Positions 1,112 through 6,918 of a stretch of DNA of 52,770 nt are shown here, piece after piece. The DNA comes from Nanobdellota archaeon (GTDB lineage Archaea > Nanobdellota > Nanobdellia > Woesearchaeales > GW2011-AR4): NCBI GenBank assembly GCA_038046385.1, contig JBBSWH010000007.1, positions 1 to 52,770 on the forward strand. Direction: 5' to 3'. Made by a program: the position numbers and the translations under genes. Each line of letters begins with the position of its first letter. Positions within the stretch are counted from its first letter, which is position 1. Under the pieces are notes generated by a model, which was not told the origin of the DNA, ran no database searches, and saw nothing but the letters and a program-made list of their open reading frames with translations.

Positions 1112-2116
1112 ATGCCAGATATGCCATCTTCAAAAAAAGAGGTTATTTCTAAAATTCTCCTTTACGTCTTGCTTCCATTAAGTGCTTTTTTTCTGATTAT
1201 TTTACCCGGTCTTGTTTCTAACCGTTACAGTCAAAGCTTAGAAGTTGTATACGGCATCGGAGCGATACTTTTGGGGACGACGATAATTAACTTATTGTTC
1301 GTTGTAATAGAACACTTTTCAGAAAAAAGATTTAGTTTCGTAAAAATTGCGTTTTGGACTTATGAAGCTATATTGATTGTCACCGCTCCTATGGTGTATG
1401 GTCCAGGTGGATTGGAAAAGATTCCGGTCATGTTGATTTTCAATCCCTTCACAATAGTTGTGCCTGCTTTAATCGCAGCATATTTTATTAATAAAAATAA
1501 TCCGCAATTATTTGAAAAGAGAATTCCACTAAAATGGAGTATGGCGCTGATAGTTGCGTGCATCGTAGTAGTACTCTTAGTTTTAATTTTTATTAAAGAT
1601 ATGCCATCATGCAATACACATTTTGGAACTGGCAAATTATTTGGCGTCGACAATTCTTTCTGCCTGTACAATTTAGCTATAAACAGTAAAAATCCAAGTT
1701 ATTGCGAAAAAGCATCTAGTATTGATAGAAGATTAGATTGCTTGGAGAAAGTTATACAAAAAGACCATAAACTGGTTGAAGGATACTGTGAAAGCTTAAG
1801 CGAACTTGAAAAAAGCAAATGTGTTAATGCTTTGAATAACTTCTATCTAGGCCGGATGTTTGCATCGCCGCAGTTTGAGGCTGCAATTGAGGGTACTCAG
1901 AATTGCACAGATTCTGATCAGGGATATAATTGGTACGTTCGTGGAACAATAACCGGAAGTTCAGTAGGCACAGCAACAGATGATTGTGTTTTAATAGGTG
2001 GAACGAGTATTCTTAGAGAAAGATATTGTCCCAAGCAACTAGGGCTTGTTGTAGAAGAATATATTTTTAGTTATAAATGCCCAAACGGCTGCAGCGATGG
2101 CGCTTGTTTGCCTTAG
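1112..2116 (+). CDS. Multi-pass membrane protein with Cys-rich extracellular C-terminus
   Basis: About five hydrophobic segments, then many Cys pairs ending CTDSDQG...LRERYC...CPNGCSDGAC; TATA 30 nt upstream. Confidence 0.7.
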   Translation: MPDMPSSKKEVISKILLYVLLPLSAFFLIILPGLVSNRYSQSLEVVYGIGAILLGTTIINLLFVVIEHFSEKRFSFVKIAFWTYEAILIVTAPMVYGPGGLEKIPVMLIFNPFTIVVPALIAAYFINKNNPQLFEKRIPLKWSMALIVACIVVVLLVLIFIKDMPSCNTHFGTGKLFGVDNSFCLYNLAINSKNPSYCEKASSIDRRLDCLEKVIQKDHKLVEGYCESLSELEKSKCVNALNNFYLGRMFASPQFEAAIEGTQNCTDSDQGYNWYVRGTITGSSVGTATDDCVLIGGTSILRERYCPKQLGLVVEEYIFSYKCPNGCSDGACLP

Positions 2117-2195
2117 ATTCTTGGATAAAAGAGTAAAAAGTTGTCCTTCTAAGTGATTACTAAAGTTTATAAATTTGGCATTAGATTATGCTGTT

Positions 2196-2459
2196 ATGAA
2201 CCGAATAAGGGCGCTTGAACACAGAGTTAGGAACATAGAAATGCGCAATTACTCTGTGGAATCCAATAAGGAATGGGAAACCAGCTTTACAAGGAAGTTT
2301 TTGCTTGTAATTTTCACTTATTTCTCTGTCGGCATTTATATGTATTACATTGGGATTCCAAATCCCTGGGTTAATTCAATAGTTCCTGCCCTTGCTTTTC
2401 TGCTTTCAACATTGACTTTGCCGGCATTCAAGAAAGCATGGATTCACAGCAGGAAATAG
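2196..2459 (+). CDS. Small membrane protein
   Basis: RNYSVESNKEWETS followed by two TM helices; ATG 2196 lies 30 nt after TTTATAAA (2166). Confidence 0.65.
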   Translation: MNRIRALEHRVRNIEMRNYSVESNKEWETSFTRKFLLVIFTYFSVGIYMYYIGIPNPWVNSIVPALAFLLSTLTLPAFKKAWIHSRK

Positions 2460-2504
2460 CTGTCAAAACAAACTTTTATATTATTTCTTTGATTAACTGT
2501 TTTT

Positions 2505-3743
2505 ATGCAGATTAATTACAAAAAGCATTCCGGTTATGATCCATTAGGAGACTGCGGAAAAGGCAAGTGTCCTGTATGCGCGAGGAATAATGCAATGTTT
2601 CGCACAAGAGACGCTATTCTGAAGGATAATTTCACGAGTGATGGAGTTGCTCCCTTCGTGGGCCACTACGGATACCCAAACATAAACGTTGGAATTCTTG
2701 CGCCTCCAACAGAATCAGATGACTCTTGGATGTATGATGCTCCAAAATACTGGGCAGAGAACAGATTTGAAATACCAAAAATTGTTGATTTCCGCTCTTC
2801 ATTATTAAATTCAAGGTACAGTGTCAACATCAAAAAAAGAGAAAAACTTGTTGAGCTTTCGCAGGATATTGCAATGTCCTCCAAGCCCGTTGATGTTGAA
2901 ATTCAGTTAAAGGAAAAGCCGAAATTCCGCTTGAATCTTGATTCTTACATGGCGCCAACAGGCCCAAATGCAAAGCTGGAAAAGGCAACCCTGACAGAAA
3001 ACCCCAAGATCCACACAAAAGTCTACAAAGTTTTTGAGGATATTGACTGGAAAGCAGGCGATGCAATAAACTATCTGTATGAAAATAACTTTGATGAAAA
3101 CTTTCTTTCAAGAATTTTAAGTGTTGGCACAGTTGGAATGAAAAAAGACAGAAAGCTTGTGCCGACAAGATGGAGTATTGTAGCTGTCGATTCCAATATA
3201 GGAGATAATTTAATTTCCCAAGTCAAAGATTATAATCAATCAGGATATTTAGCATATTTTGGCGGATATTTGGGCAATTATTTCCTAATACTGATGTTTT
3301 CAGATGCTTGGAGCTATGAGTTATTTGAAACTTATATTCCCCCTCATTGCAGCTTTAATTCAAATTTAAAGTCCACTACAGATTATGAAAGTTACTATGG
3401 AAGGAAAAGATATGCCGAGGAGACTGCCGGCGGATATTATGCAGCCAGAATTGGGATATTGGAAAACCTAAATGATATAAAAAAACAGTCAAGTGTGCTT
3501 GCTTTAAGGTTTATTACTGATGAATATTCGATGCCTTTAGGTGTATGGGTAGTGCGCCAAGCTGTCAGAAAAGCTTTAAAAAATAAGCCGATAGAATTTT
3601 CCAGCAAAGAGCTAATGCTTAACTATGCCAAAGCTGTTATAAAGAAAAAATTCAATTTTAACTTAGATAATGTGCTTGCAAAAAGCATACTTTTGAAGCA
3701 GGTTAAGCAGCAATCCAAGCTGACTAAATTTTTGCATTCTTGA
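2505..3743 (+). CDS. nreA: Nre-family PCNA-interacting DNA repair protein
   Basis: PFVGHYGYPNINVG, RKLVPTRWSIVAVD, GGYYAAR and PLGVWVVR motifs; C-terminal PIP box QSKLTKFL. Confidence 0.85.
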   Translation: MQINYKKHSGYDPLGDCGKGKCPVCARNNAMFRTRDAILKDNFTSDGVAPFVGHYGYPNINVGILAPPTESDDSWMYDAPKYWAENRFEIPKIVDFRSSLLNSRYSVNIKKREKLVELSQDIAMSSKPVDVEIQLKEKPKFRLNLDSYMAPTGPNAKLEKATLTENPKIHTKVYKVFEDIDWKAGDAINYLYENNFDENFLSRILSVGTVGMKKDRKLVPTRWSIVAVDSNIGDNLISQVKDYNQSGYLAYFGGYLGNYFLILMFSDAWSYELFETYIPPHCSFNSNLKSTTDYESYYGRKRYAEETAGGYYAARIGILENLNDIKKQSSVLALRFITDEYSMPLGVWVVRQAVRKALKNKPIEFSSKELMLNYAKAVIKKKFNFNLDNVLAKSILLKQVKQQSKLTKFLHS

Positions 3744-4006
3744 CATTTTAAATCGCCTAAAACGTGTTTCAACTGCCAAATTGTCATTTCTGTTCTCGGA
3801 TATATATTCTGCAGAAGCACTGGACATCTCCGTGTAAGATATATAAACGAGAAATCACTTACGCAGTTTCAACTTGATATAGTTCGGTGATTTAAAATGT
3901 ATGAAAAATTTAGCAGTATAAGGTTGGATCTGTTTAAGCTTCACGATTCAAAAGATACTACTAAGAATTGGCTTTTTGCTAAAGGTAAAACTCTTAAAAT
4001 TGAATT
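3649..4006 (+). repeat. Long imperfect inverted repeat / rod-like hairpin covering the nreA 3' end, intergenic region and start of the next gene
   Basis: Ten nested complementary blocks of 6-15 bp, e.g. 3649-3661/3994-4006, 3678-3686/3971-3979, 3724-3733/3904-3913, 3743-3757/3886-3900. Confidence 0.8.
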
Positions 4007-5186
4007 AAAAGGCTTGATTAGCAAAACTAGTTTTTCCAACACTGAACTTGTTAAATATTTGATGAAAAAGCTAAATATTTCAATAGCTTCCGCTGAAAGG
4101 TTGGTTTATCTCAAAAAAGAGTGGTATCCTTTAAGTTTTATTGAAGAGCTAGTAAATTTAACCAGTTCTGATAAATATCAAATTCAAGATAAAATTGAGT
4201 TCTTGAAATCTTGCAAACCACCAGTTGTTGAATACAAAGCAGTCAAAGAACTTACTATTGATTTATGTAAAATTGCAGGTGCTCATGCAGCAGATGGAAC
4301 ACTCTATGATAGCTATATCGCGATAACTGACAATCATAAAAGCAATATCCTAGCTTTAATGAAATGGTTTGAAGGTTTTGGCTATTCTCCAAAATTGATG
4401 AGGATAGGAGAAAATGAATATGGCATAAAGTTTCATAGCAGGATATTATCAAGATATTTGACAAAATTCTTTGATTTTCCTTCCGGCTGCAAGCAATACA
4501 CGGTAAAAGAGTCTGAAATAATAAGAAATGCTCCTTTAGAGTTCAGAAAAGCTTTTGCCTTGGGCGCTTTAACATTTGATGGCTGTGTAACGAGCGGAAA
4601 TAAAATTGAGCTTTGTGTTTCAAGTAAAGGCTTTCGGGATTCAATTGCTGAAATATTAACAGAATTAGGCGTTAATCATGTATCAATGGAGAAACAAAGC
4701 TCTGATTATTGGAGGCTTTGGAGCAAATCCTTGTCAAAAGAAGAAGTTTTGAAATGGATTGAATTGTTTGAGCCAAATACAGAAAAATGGTTTAAATTAA
4801 ATGATTATGTTAATGGCTTTTCTTGTAAGGTTAGCTCATTTGAAGAAGCGGTTTATATCTTAAACTCAGTTTATCCAAAGCAATCCGGCAGTAAAGTGGT
4901 ATTAAAGGACGTTTTGCTGGCTTTTAACGAATTAAAGCAAACTTACCGCTATGAATTGGCGGATTATTTGGCAAAGAAAAAGAATCTTAAGTCTTACGGA
5001 GGCACATGGGCACATTCTTTAAGGCATCATTTAGATATTCTCAAAAGAGCCAATATAATATCAGTTGAAAAGCAAAGATTTCACCCAAAGAAATCTTTTG
5101 GAACGACTGTAAGGGAAGTTTATAGGTTTAACGAGAATGTTGAAGGGTGGAGAGTGCCTGAAAGGAGTATAATATTAAATACTTGA
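3897..5186 (+). CDS. Free-standing double-motif LAGLIDADG endonuclease-like protein with flanking HTH-like regions
   Basis: IAGAHAADG and FALGALTFDG motifs; SD GGTGA at 3886-3890; no intein splicing termini. Confidence 0.75.
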   Translation: MYEKFSSIRLDLFKLHDSKDTTKNWLFAKGKTLKIELKGLISKTSFSNTELVKYLMKKLNISIASAERLVYLKKEWYPLSFIEELVNLTSSDKYQIQDKIEFLKSCKPPVVEYKAVKELTIDLCKIAGAHAADGTLYDSYIAITDNHKSNILALMKWFEGFGYSPKLMRIGENEYGIKFHSRILSRYLTKFFDFPSGCKQYTVKESEIIRNAPLEFRKAFALGALTFDGCVTSGNKIELCVSSKGFRDSIAEILTELGVNHVSMEKQSSDYWRLWSKSLSKEEVLKWIELFEPNTEKWFKLNDYVNGFSCKVSSFEEAVYILNSVYPKQSGSKVVLKDVLLAFNELKQTYRYELADYLAKKKNLKSYGGTWAHSLRHHLDILKRANIISVEKQRFHPKKSFGTTVREVYRFNENVEGWRVPERSIILNT

Positions 5187-5205
5187 ATAATTTTTTTAAT
5201 AAAAT

Positions 5206-6009
5206 ATGAAAAAAGCTTATTATTATGTTTTTGTTAGCCCTTTAAAACAGGTGTATAACGATGATAAAAAAATGAAACCTAGTTTTGTAATTCCTATAAA
5301 AACTGCTACCAAAATTTATGAAATATCTTTATTCTCAACTAAAAATAGAGTTTATATGATACGAATTACGATTCCAAATTTAGTTGAAGAAAAAATAACA
5401 GATTATGATACGAAATTTATTCAAATGATTAAAGAACATATGTTATCAGTCCTAAGACTTACATATGACAATGAAATAAGCTCTTTCAGACCAGTTTGGG
5501 TGTTTAGAGATGAGAATGAACCACCAGCACTAAAAATAAAGATTACTGAGAAGATTAATCCAGAATTTAAAGTGAACCCGGAGAATATTAAGTCAACTTA
5601 TTGTGCAACGTTCCAAATACGCCATCAGCTTAGACTTTTATCAGATGGTCAAGATAATAGAATTCCTTTACAATACAGGTTCCTTTCTTTATATAAACTG
5701 CTTGAATTAGAATTCAAAAACAAAGGCACTTTCAAAAAAGATGAATTATTAAATTTCTTATCAAAATTTGAAGGAGAATTTAAAACCCTTAAAAAGTCTA
5801 ATATGGGGTTATTTGGGTATATTGAAGATACAAGGAATAAATGTGCACATATCAAAAATAAAAAAGAAATCCTAGGTGTAACCCATTTAGATCAAAAGCC
5901 TGCAAGAGAGATTGAGCTTTTTTTGCCATTATTTCTTAAGATATGTTCAGTATTATTAAATGAAAAACATAAAGAAACTGGTTTTACTTTATTTCAAAGA
6001 CCAAATTGA
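5206..6009 (+). CDS. Putative HEPN-domain protein (Apea/MauJ-like)
   Basis: RFLSLYKLLE helix and C-terminal RNKCAH (Rx4H); visibly more AT-rich than the neighbouring housekeeping genes. Confidence 0.55.
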   Translation: MKKAYYYVFVSPLKQVYNDDKKMKPSFVIPIKTATKIYEISLFSTKNRVYMIRITIPNLVEEKITDYDTKFIQMIKEHMLSVLRLTYDNEISSFRPVWVFRDENEPPALKIKITEKINPEFKVNPENIKSTYCATFQIRHQLRLLSDGQDNRIPLQYRFLSLYKLLELEFKNKGTFKKDELLNFLSKFEGEFKTLKKSNMGLFGYIEDTRNKCAHIKNKKEILGVTHLDQKPAREIELFLPLFLKICSVLLNEKHKETGFTLFQRPN

Positions 6010-6316: not shown

Positions 6317-6597
6317 AATATTATTTTTGTAAACTCAATATATAAATATTTCGTAATAGAGATTTAAGGAATGATAATCCTTTAAAACTATTTTCTCCAA
6401 TAAATTTATAAATAACATTCAATTTTAATTCTAAAATGAACAGAATAAAGGCAAGTAAAAATATTGTATTGGTAGCCATTATTCTAGTCCTGGTTCTGAT
6501 TTTATAAGCCCCAAACAATAACATATTCTTCCGGGGCTTTGTATCGTTTCAAAATTCTAGAGTATGTTATAAAAACAAAAACACGAGGTAGAATAAG

Positions 6598-6918
6598 ATG
6601 TACGAAAATGTAGGAGTTAAGTATGTGCCTATGAGCAGTCCCGGAAATAACGGGCTTCTTATGAGGTTTGGCCCATTGCCGGATGGCGTTAATCTAGACC
6701 ATCTCTTAGGGGTTGTCCAGCAATCATATCTGGCTGTAACAAGCCAGTCAAATGGCGTTACATTTAATGTTATTCCTCACGGAAAAAGGTCTGTCGGAGT
6801 ATCTGTTAGTCTGCCACCTACCAGCACAAGTGATTTTGGAAGAATGCTTTGTGAACTTGTAGAACAAACGCTTAGAGAAAACTCAGCAAGCGACTGGCAG
6901 GCAGACGGAATAAGTTAA
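6598..6918 (+). CDS. Hypothetical protein
   Basis: 106-aa ORF with GAGGT SD, upstream of ilvE. Confidence 0.55.
   Translation: MYENVGVKYVPMSSPGNNGLLMRFGPLPDGVNLDHLLGVVQQSYLAVTSQSNGVTFNVIPHGKRSVGVSVSLPPTSTSDFGRMLCELVEQTLRENSASDWQADGIS

Follow-up and report, generated by a model that had tools for sequence, protein, structure and literature searches.

A fold-back between archaeal nreA and a LAGLIDADG gene contains a covarying leader RNA with a promoter-like motif in its loop

In T-even phages, homing endonuclease genes (I-TevI, I-TevII, I-TevIII and segB of T4, and mobE of Aeh1) are preceded by RNA structures that sequester the ribosome-binding site (RBS) on transcripts started upstream, and an internal middle or late promoter produces transcripts that lack the inhibitory arm and leave the RBS free (PMC2988022, passages on these genes). 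In fungal mitochondria, mobile open reading frames (mORFs; Allomyces atp6 and Glomus atp6, atp9, cox2 and nad3) consist of a LAGLIDADG open reading frame (ORF) joined to a replacement C-terminus of the host gene, with the native C-terminus displaced downstream (PMC3630166, passages on these insertions). Here we describe a 52,770-nt contig of a Nanobdellota archaeon of the order Woesearchaeales (GCA_038046385.1, JBBSWH010000007.1; hereafter the window), in which a fold-back of ~360 nt joins the 3′ end of nreA to the Shine-Dalgarno sequence (SD), start codon and first codons of a free-standing LAGLIDADG gene. We consider it fairly probable, though well short of certain, that the fold-back is a translational insulator with an embedded promoter, serving as the 5′ regulatory module of a mobile cassette.

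A reading of this DNA made from its letters and ORFs alone (the sequence-only reading) had likened the fold-back to the RBS-sequestering hairpins of T4, and the comparison proved apt (PMC2988022, same passages): an RNA structure pairs both the SD and the start codon, as seen in the minimum free energy (MFE) structure, in the partition function, and by covariation in sets of 11 and 38 copies. The window has the parts of the T-even system in the same order, its promoter being putative. The host is an archaeon rather than a phage, the nuclease is of the LAGLIDADG rather than the GIY-YIG or HNH type, and the promoter is of the TATA-box type with an upstream CACTGGACA word instead of a sigma-factor late promoter. 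Unlike the T-even hairpins, the structure belongs to a conserved three-helix family of ~110 nt with a promoter-bearing insert of 35-160 nt, and in the window it has grown to ~360 nt into two coding sequences. The mORF architecture, to the extent that the published passages describe it, recurs at nreA in genome G020 and at loci L039 and L045, where the in-frame C-terminus is foreign and cassette-linked. In contrast to the mORFs, the host is a chromosomal archaeal gene and the ORF stands apart from it, with a putative promoter and a leader of its own, and the window lacks a displaced fragment. The passages of PMC3630166 on the insertions mention no fold-back between inserted C-terminus and ORF.

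In the open-access papers searched on LAGLIDADG proteins in Woesearchaeota and DPANN (for DPANN, titles and abstracts), leaders of free-standing genes are not described; the portion dealing with Woesearchaeota concerns group I introns. The control logic is already known from T-even phages and the cassette type from fungal mitochondria. The archaeal setting, the leader RNA family with a promoter in its loop, the PCNA-binding segment of nreA as a target and the growth of the hairpin into two coding sequences appear to be new.

As RNA, the plus strand of positions 3640-4015 folds with an MFE of -102 kcal/mol, compared with -69.87±4.97 kcal/mol for 100 dinucleotide shuffles, none of which was as good (z -6.46), and the MFE structure is a single nested fold-back spanning 3649-4006. 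Folding was weaker for the minus strand (-85 kcal/mol, z -3.57). When the left arm was globally aligned with the reverse-complemented right arm, 132 positions matched, 32 were mismatched and 55 columns contained gaps. All ten complementary blocks listed in the sequence-only reading were present at the positions it gave, five of them also recovered by repeat search (Table 1), and both arms lie in intact ORFs, as it had claimed. It had also noted that several mismatches are G-U compatible on the plus strand; the alignment, read by eye, has 5 G·T versus 2 A·C mismatches, a weak asymmetry. When the amino-acid sequences of both arms were held fixed and codons were drawn from the genome's usage, the fold-back remained exceptional, both as a whole (-102.0 versus -76.5±4.8, z -5.3, 0/60) and in the interaction energy between its arms (-24.3 versus -8.9±4.1, z -3.8, 0/150). 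These comparisons confirm that the fold-back is real and far beyond chance. Contigs from four DNA sequencing runs were identical to the window across the fold-back, giving zero strain variants for covariation. The idea that the fold-back is a dispersed repeat or miniature inverted-repeat transposable element was rejected: within the genome (1.28 Mb, 85% completeness) only the loop motif and the leader recur, and the arms do not.

The centre of the fold-back (3743-3900) is a member of a structured leader family. Copies in the same genome share an outer helix (H1) that pairs an anti-SD with the SD and, in one of two sub-types (type B), also with the AUG, followed by a core helix (AAACTGC/GCAGTTT) carrying conserved internal-loop bases and by an apical stem. 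The window is of type B, together with copies at C5:55443 (minus strand) and C5:121130 (plus strand). For eleven type-B leaders, drawn from the same genome, orthologous loci and distant loci, RNAalifold derived a consensus with 27 pairs, and compensatory changes were seen in 12. All three helices covary, including the one that pairs the anti-SD with SD and AUG, and the core helix appears as AACTAT/ATAGTT and AGCTCT/AGAGCT at other loci. A covariance model of the family (R1; 112 positions, 28 pairs) found three strong and five weaker (type-A) copies in the genome of the window. Across the order it had matches in 22 of the 151 genomes sampled, the largest number in any one genome being seven. 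Across 39 aligned matches 90.2% of cells pair, and 20 of the 28 pairs change on both sides, compared with 10.1±1.6 in shuffles (0/500) and 6-13 in slid controls; these counts come from an alignment fitted to the model and include one reverse-strand artefact (a palindrome matched on the minus strand of L040), which was dropped from the wobble counts, leaving 38 genuine copies. The anti-SD pairing noted in the sequence-only reading is therefore a conserved, covarying element. Within H1, wobble states across the family are 19 G·U versus 7 A·C, as expected for plus-strand RNA. The ORF beginning at the leader AUG matched LAGLIDADG_3 in 21 of 28 cases (E ≤ 0.01), the figure for the genome of the window being 5 of 8, and a few of the remaining ORFs matched Mrr, Vsr or PD-(D/E)XK nuclease families. 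Rfam gave no match at E ≤ 1 in positions 3000-5500 of the window, and only tRNAs at E ≤ 0.1 in five loci with leader copies.

The type-A leaders are built as AAAAAGAGAA...AAAACTGCCAAAT-hairpin-ATTACGCAGTTT...TTCTCTTTTT, and behind this part a further hairpin, distinct from the first (CTCCAAAGTT...AACTTTGGAGGT), conceals the SD. They precede LAGLIDADG, PD-(D/E)XK, zinc-finger and helix-turn-helix genes, and R1 matches them weakly (E 4e-4 to 0.02).

Used as a DNA query against its own genome, the fold-back returned many matches, every one of them through its centre alone (3818-3852). The repeated word consists of CACTGGACATC, a gap of ~10 nt and (A/G)A(G/A)ATATATAAA, and a strict scan of the genome found 31 copies. 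An ATG lies 22-24 nt past the TATA box in 6 of the 31. This spacing is the geometry of leaderless mRNAs in archaea, and because of it the motif is likely to be a real promoter with a start ~24 nt downstream. In the window such a start, near 3871, would fall downstream of all the 5′ arms and of the inner 3′ arms, and would give a leader of 26 nt carrying the SD GGTGAT. The sequence-only reading had proposed that a TATA-like box at 3840-3847 could bypass the block or drive an antisense RNA. The box proved to be part of this genome-wide promoter-like motif, which would provide the bypass, and no evidence was found for the antisense RNA.

Other copies of the motif precede genes for MCM and a helicase-ERCC4 (Hef-like) helicase-nuclease, a tyrosine recombinase (integrase), a Cas4-like nuclease, a Bro-N protein, an NgoPII-type restriction enzyme and about ten LAGLIDADG proteins of the same genome. 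The motif may therefore mark a regulon of DNA metabolism or of mobile elements; its presence before MCM, Hef-like, Cas4-like, integrase and some ten nuclease genes suggests the former, and the mobile genes may have adopted the promoter word. The word, often as CACTGGCCA, is also present in leader loops of other genomes of the order. At L045 (1330-1360) a perfect palindrome in the apical insert contains the promoter word together with its reverse complement (CACTGGACAACTGAAATGTCCAGTG); another copy of the word lies downstream. At L016 (genome G024) the promoter word stands downstream of the nreA stop in the same upstream context as at L039 (TATATTTTCTACAAGCACTGGACAT...), and is followed by a sequence that by eye resembles a tRNA, with no nuclease gene.

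Among the 38 leader copies, the apical loop holds an insert of 35-160 nt in 25 and is 7-17 nt long in 13. Most inserts, read by eye, carry a CACTGG(A/C)CA-like word and terminate on their 3′ side, 10-16 nt further on, in a TATA-like box; regular expressions found the first word in 15 inserts and the box in 19. The promoter lies in the loop in the window, G020, L039, L040 and L045, is degenerate in L046, and lies upstream of the anti-SD in L047 and C5:55443. Loci with the promoter in the loop keep the pairing by compensatory change (AACTGC/GCAGTT versus AACTAT/ATAGTT, and TTTTTTATTAC/GTGATAAAAAA for anti-SD/SD in L046), and therefore an RNA spanning both arms seems to matter. Partition-function calculations predicted that in read-through RNA the SD and the AUG are both unpaired with a probability of 0.001, and that in RNA starting at 3866-3874 these values rise to 0.32 for the SD and 0.94 for the AUG. 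In silico removal of 3744-3759 had a similar effect (SD 0.31, AUG 0.94).

If the motif does act as a promoter and initiates transcription near 3871, if transcripts reading through from nreA exist and if masking lowers translation, the parts would act as follows. The cassette would comprise a portable C-terminal segment of nreA, a structured leader with an embedded promoter and the free-standing LAGLIDADG gene, placed at the 3′ end of nreA. In RNA entering from upstream by nreA read-through, the anti-SD would pair with the SD, the spacer and the AUG, the two conserved inner helices would hold this pairing in register, and in this lineage it would have been lengthened outward by pairing of the last ~31 codons of nreA with codons 2-37 of the nuclease gene, such that host-driven transcripts would not yield the nuclease. 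Transcripts from the loop promoter would lack the 5′ arms, carry a free SD on a leader of ~26 nt and be translatable. Nuclease synthesis would then be tied to a type of promoter also found before MCM, Hef-like, Cas4-like, integrase and many nuclease genes. A bolder version, which we put forward tentatively and hold to be somewhat doubtful, is that archaea of this order carry an undescribed family of self-insulating modules, in which a three-helix leader flanks its own promoter and only cassette-initiated transcripts would be translated, wherever the module lands. The hairpin at nreA would have grown into both coding sequences, with the PCNA-binding tail and the nuclease N-terminus co-evolving as a dual-coding RNA duplex of ~100 bp per arm.

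The outer, coding-coding helices were then compared among orthologues. The 67 outer pairs of the window are kept at 58 positions in L040, 54 in L039, 54 in G020, 52 in L045 and 47 in L046, and at 25 of 46 comparable positions in L047; 10 of the 67 show compensatory states on several branches. In the four closest loci 85.1% of cells are paired and 13 pairs change on both sides, compared with 5.7±1.8 in shuffles and 0-5 in slid controls, a count biased by the derivation of the structure from one of its own rows. Beyond H1, flank-to-flank complementarity reached z ≤ -2 in 11 of the 38 leader copies and z ≤ -3 in seven, four of which are not nreA loci. In genome G033 the first codons of an unrelated nuclease gene are complementary to the last codons of nreA (z -2.4, 3/100). 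Selection has probably favoured the proximal extension (~3703-3742 with 3901-3937) because it reinforces RBS masking; the more distal helices may be relics or a by-product confined to one lineage.

Several observations weigh against insulation by a loop promoter. Thirteen of the 38 copies have a short loop, and in two of these (C5:55443 and L047) the promoter-like motif lies upstream of the anti-SD, which would leave the gene's own mRNA masked; such copies require more than insulation. At L086 the left flank lies across the start of a divergent gene, a setting in which host-gene read-through is not to be expected and which does not fit the silencing of such transcripts. Over all 28 family pairs A·C states (39) are not rarer than G·U states (29), and in the inner helices they outnumber them (32 versus 10, or 14 versus 6 without helix-end pairs), so that plus-strand RNA is not favoured there. 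In the model, the outer arms are not needed for masking: with the coding arm alone removed, the SD was still masked at 0.001. Thermodynamic significance of the outer arms is confined to the window (z -3.8 and -5.3) and, in part, to L039 (-2.9 and -1.3). For the window, codon permutation gave z -4.9 and synonymous redraw z -3.8; the corresponding values are -5.6 and -2.9 for L039, -2.0 and -1.8 for L040, and +1.75 and +1.74 for G020. L040, G020, L045 and L046 do not reach significance, the last two by either control, nor do L047 and L041 by codon permutation, the control applied to them. Across codons 2-37 of the nuclease gene, synonymous conservation exceeds that of the rest of the gene only by a little (0.72 versus 0.65, block range 0.56-0.71). 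The sequence-only reading had looked to homologous loci for equivalent pairing: the core covaries there as it anticipated, but pairing of the outer arms is energetically significant only in the window and L039. At L086 itself, the divergent gene (1706-2578, plus strand) encodes a 290-aa protein that by eye resembles RNase HII (GIDEAGRGP), and its first codons lie inside the left arm of an extended fold-back at that locus.

Something switch-like is needed for the short-loop copies, whose own mRNA would be masked. A regulated switch, in which the inner module (AAACTGCCAAAT, hairpin, ATTACGCAGTTT) binds a trans factor that opens or locks H1, would account for short-loop copies with an upstream promoter, which would otherwise be permanently masked, and for the conservation of the inner module in both sequence and pairing across type-A and type-B leaders and across families. 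Candidate factors might be the nuclease itself (compare the autoregulation of I-TevI), a host RNA-binding protein or a small molecule, and translation would then be under control rather than simply insulated. However, the leader corresponds to no known RNA family or riboswitch in Rfam scans of 3000-5500 of the window and of five leader loci, the analysis pointed to no particular factor, and the conservation of sequence may instead reflect recent common ancestry of mobile cassettes. We consider such a switch very unlikely.

The weakness of the outer arms in relatives also bears on an explanation at the level of DNA, namely that the inverted repeat, at least in its outer arms, has no role in RNA. 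It would be the remnant of an inverted duplication dating from cassette formation at the cut 3′ end of nreA, or the product of template-switch growth and correction of a quasi-palindrome, retained since both arms are constrained as coding sequence; the inner repeats might be half-sites for a protein flanking the promoter. Template switching during replication can both extend quasi-palindromes and correct them patch by patch. The decay of the outer arms in close relatives (G020 z +1.7; L040, L045 and L046 not significant) and the weak synonymous constraint agree with this explanation, as do the wobble counts, which show no excess of G·U relative to A·C either among the four orthologues (42 versus 30, neither strand favoured) or in the inner helices of the family. 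The compensatory changes cluster on the branch of the window, in 3710-3737 with 3901-3930, as patch-wise correction would give; the nuclease gene stands beside the nreA 3′ end in both tandem and convergent orientation, so the site rearranges; the left arm of L086 covers the start of a divergent gene; and the last codons of nreA, read in antisense, resemble the first residues of the nuclease (KFNQFRLL versus KFNNVRLDL). On the other side, neutral decay does not yield pairs that are Watson-Crick in two states, as 10 of the 67 are, and the matched blocks are short and split by indels, which is not the pattern of one conversion tract. Within the family, apical stems vary in sequence yet pair, unlike a protein operator, and H1 always includes SD and AUG. 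The right arm as a recent antisense copy of nreA was rejected for residues ~10-37, where distant homologues away from nreA share DLFKLH and the domain that follows; codons 2-9 may have such an origin. The old inverted duplication raised in the sequence-only reading stands as a candidate for the outer arms, which reach significance in the window and L039 alone and whose synonymous conservation is only slightly raised. We regard an inverted repeat with no role in RNA as unlikely.

The sequence-only reading had also pointed out that the anti-SD begins at the nreA stop, and its first base, 3743, is indeed the last base of the TGA (3741-3743). It had proposed that a ribosome terminating on nreA melts the left arm and the anti-SD and so exposes the SD and AUG ~150 nt downstream, in which case the nuclease would be made mainly from the nreA transcript. 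Such termination-coupled unmasking resembles long-distance translational coupling in RNA phages: in the MS2 coat-replicase pair an upstream coding sequence pairs with the downstream initiation region, and translation of the first gene can open the second. The footprint of a terminating ribosome covers or nears positions 0-9 nt past the stop, and in all six tandem loci with the leader layout the anti-SD lies 0-9 nt after the stop, within or near its reach. The whole left arm is coding, so that each translating ribosome would open it, and the freeing of SD and AUG by removal of 3744-3759 agrees with the proposal. The zero spacing is, however, derived. In relatives nreA stops at ...KFL*; in the window this stop is missing and the gene continues for two more codons (...KFLHS*, 3732-3743), and the anti-SD abuts the stop only in the window because this ancestral stop was lost; in the five tandem orthologues it lies 6-9 nt past the stop. 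Leader copies at C5:55443, C5:121130 and L047, in all of which the promoter separates the stop from the anti-SD, and at L086 (divergent gene) have no nearby upstream stop, and copies in 5′ untranslated regions or beside a divergent gene lie far from stops. Moreover, the anti-SD masks without the coding arm, and the conserved internal promoter makes coupling unnecessary. Compared with MS2, the internal promoter would be an independent route, the sequence that pairs with the SD falls just past the upstream ORF, and coupling is absent from most leader copies. Coupling is therefore possible in the window and does not hold as the general logic; as the main explanation we judge it distinctly unlikely.

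Evidence that the unit is mobile comes from its distribution and from the C-terminus of nreA. A close orthologue of the nuclease was found in one of 42 other genomes of the genus, and matches at E ≤ 1e-30 in seven of 401 sampled genomes of the order (G000 included). All orthologues of at least 43% identity with enough flanking sequence adjoin the 3′ end of nreA, in tandem (nreA then nuclease) in the window, G020, L039, L040, L041, L045, L046, L047 and L059, and convergently, with 3′ ends nearly touching, in L055, L056, L057, L060 and L061, which are more distant (46-54% identity). The site at the nreA 3′ end is therefore occupied in both orientations. Such a sporadic distribution at one conserved target site is a trait of LAGLIDADG homing endonucleases.

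Displaced C-terminal fragments of nreA lie downstream of the nuclease gene in G020 (residues 331-409), L039 (361-406) and L045 (381-410), and resemble the C-termini of relatives that lack the cassette (native type). In-frame C-termini beside the nuclease share a different type, KKFNF(N/D)LD.IL.KSILLK..QQSKLIKFL. Over the last 30 residues the window is identical to nuclease-linked loci at 19-24 positions, even where residues 1-330 are only 51-56% identical, and to same-genus relatives without the cassette at 14-19, though their residues 1-330 are 66-73% identical. Because identity in the last 30 residues ranks by linkage to the cassette and not by relatedness over 1-330, the in-frame C-terminus is of a foreign, ORF-linked type. 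The shortest duplicated segment begins at residue 381, corresponding to nt ~3645 of the window and to the left end of the fold-back, and therefore both arms lie within one co-inherited unit. The left arm in nreA, including the PCNA-binding motif, thus appears from these comparisons to travel with the nuclease gene as a single cassette. In the window tblastn found no displaced fragment of the nreA C-terminus, and we class the window as a descendant of a cassette with a displaced fragment rather than a demonstrated case.

The sequence-only reading had overlooked the apparent membership of the nreA 3′ end in a mobile cassette. At L018 (genome G002, 2600-2715) a cassette-type nreA C-terminus (22/30 identical to the window) occurs with neither leader nor nuclease gene and may be a footprint of cassette loss. 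At L028 (genome G033, oriented 2742-2884 and downstream) the same site holds an unrelated, 381-aa nuclease-like gene (BLASTP E 0.51 to that of the window), preceded by the same leader and by an nreA with the same cassette-type end, which suggests that nuclease bodies are exchanged modularly behind a common 5′ module.

If insulation by the loop promoter is correct, the control logic of T-even homing endonucleases extends to archaea, and a structured RNA family outside Rfam marks free-standing LAGLIDADG genes in many uncultured archaea with small genomes; the leader would help annotators to find these genes and their true start codons. A portable C-terminus cassette like that of the mitochondrial mORFs would likewise occur in a repair gene on an archaeal chromosome, its target being the segment with the PCNA-binding motif.

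Table 1. Coordinates of features in the window and of related copies elsewhere
Feature	Position	Strand	Basis or detail
nreA, 412 aa, archaeal PCNA-binding repair factor	2505..3743	+	Pfam Nre_N 3.1e-76, Nre_C 5.5e-31
Left outer arm, last ~31 codons of nreA, cassette-type C-terminus	3649..3742	+	
Anti-SD, 5′ arm of helix H1, ACATTTTAAATCGCC	3743..3757	+	pairs with 3886-3900; covaries in 11 and 38 copies
Core helix 5′ arm, AACTGC	3771..3776	+	pairs with GCAGTT 3863-3868; RNAalifold consensus
Apical-base helix 5′ arm, GTCATTTCT	3783..3791	+	pairs with AGAAATCAC 3850-3858; alignment columns 50-58 with 221-229
Promoter-like motif, apical loop	3818..3848	+	CACTGGACA 3818-3826, 13 nt, TATATAAA 3840-3847
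3′ arms of apical-base helix (3850-3858) and core helix (3863-3868)	3850..3868	+	RNAalifold consensus
Predicted transcription start of the putative internal promoter	3871 ±3 nt	+	distance rule from leaderless genes with the motif
H1 3′ arm: SD GGTGAT 3886-3891, spacer, ATG 3897-3899	3886..3900	+	
Free-standing double-motif LAGLIDADG gene, 429 aa, C-terminal winged-helix-like region	3897..5186	+	Pfam, motif, fold
Right outer arm, codons 2-37 of nuclease gene	3901..4006	+	
Repeat I1	3743-3760/3883-3900		repeat search
Repeat I6	3649-3661/3994-4006		repeat search
Repeat I7	3793-3807/3839-3853		repeat search
Repeat I22	3724-3733/3904-3913		repeat search
Repeat I25	3678-3686/3971-3979		repeat search
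Example motif copies elsewhere in the genome	C6:64865, C6:146828(-), C1:127, C6:85585, C18:12194		
Type-A leader copies	C4:35069, C4:45520, C4:56996, C5:89795, C6:49829, C9:17487; also L050		
Displaced nreA fragment, L030 (G020)	6394-6630	-	
Displaced nreA fragment, L039	2493-2630		
Displaced nreA fragment, L045	3716-3805		

The label nreA given in the sequence-only reading is correct, both Nre domains being present, with the Nre_C profile aligned over its full length (1-110 of 110) to residues 295-409 of 412. NreA binds PCNA through a PCNA-interacting peptide (PIP) motif of consensus QXXhXXaa, and according to the portion of a review devoted to it loss of the motif phenocopies loss of NreA (PMC4929162). 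The C-terminal QSKLTKFL of the window fits the form QxxLxxF(L); it reads QxxhxxF followed by L, where the final position of the consensus is aromatic.

The protein encoded downstream matches LAGLIDADG_3 just above the cut-off (23.5 versus 22.5 bits). Its first LAGLIDADG motif contains an invariant aspartate (D133, in ..AADG), and a second, read by eye as GALTF(D/E)G, has D/E at position 228. An AlphaFold2 model of mediocre quality (pLDDT 66, with four of the five models scoring below 50), used for fold class only, gave Foldseek matches to I-Tsp061I, I-DmoI, PI-SceI and WhiA (E 8e-7 to 5e-4), with target TM-scores of 0.56-0.64 to I-Tsp061I and I-DmoI. Two motifs with an acidic residue and a matching predicted fold are consistent with a LAGLIDADG homing endonuclease; as WhiA is among the fold matches, the modelled fold may also be put to a non-catalytic, WhiA-like use. 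Directly after the nuclease gene, a 267-aa ORF (5206-6009) with a sub-threshold match to MauJ (24.5 bits versus a cut-off of 28) has no counterpart in G020. The orthologous nuclease gene of L040 (2656-3924) is interrupted by an in-frame stop following codon 75, with leader and promoter intact, and may be a decaying copy.

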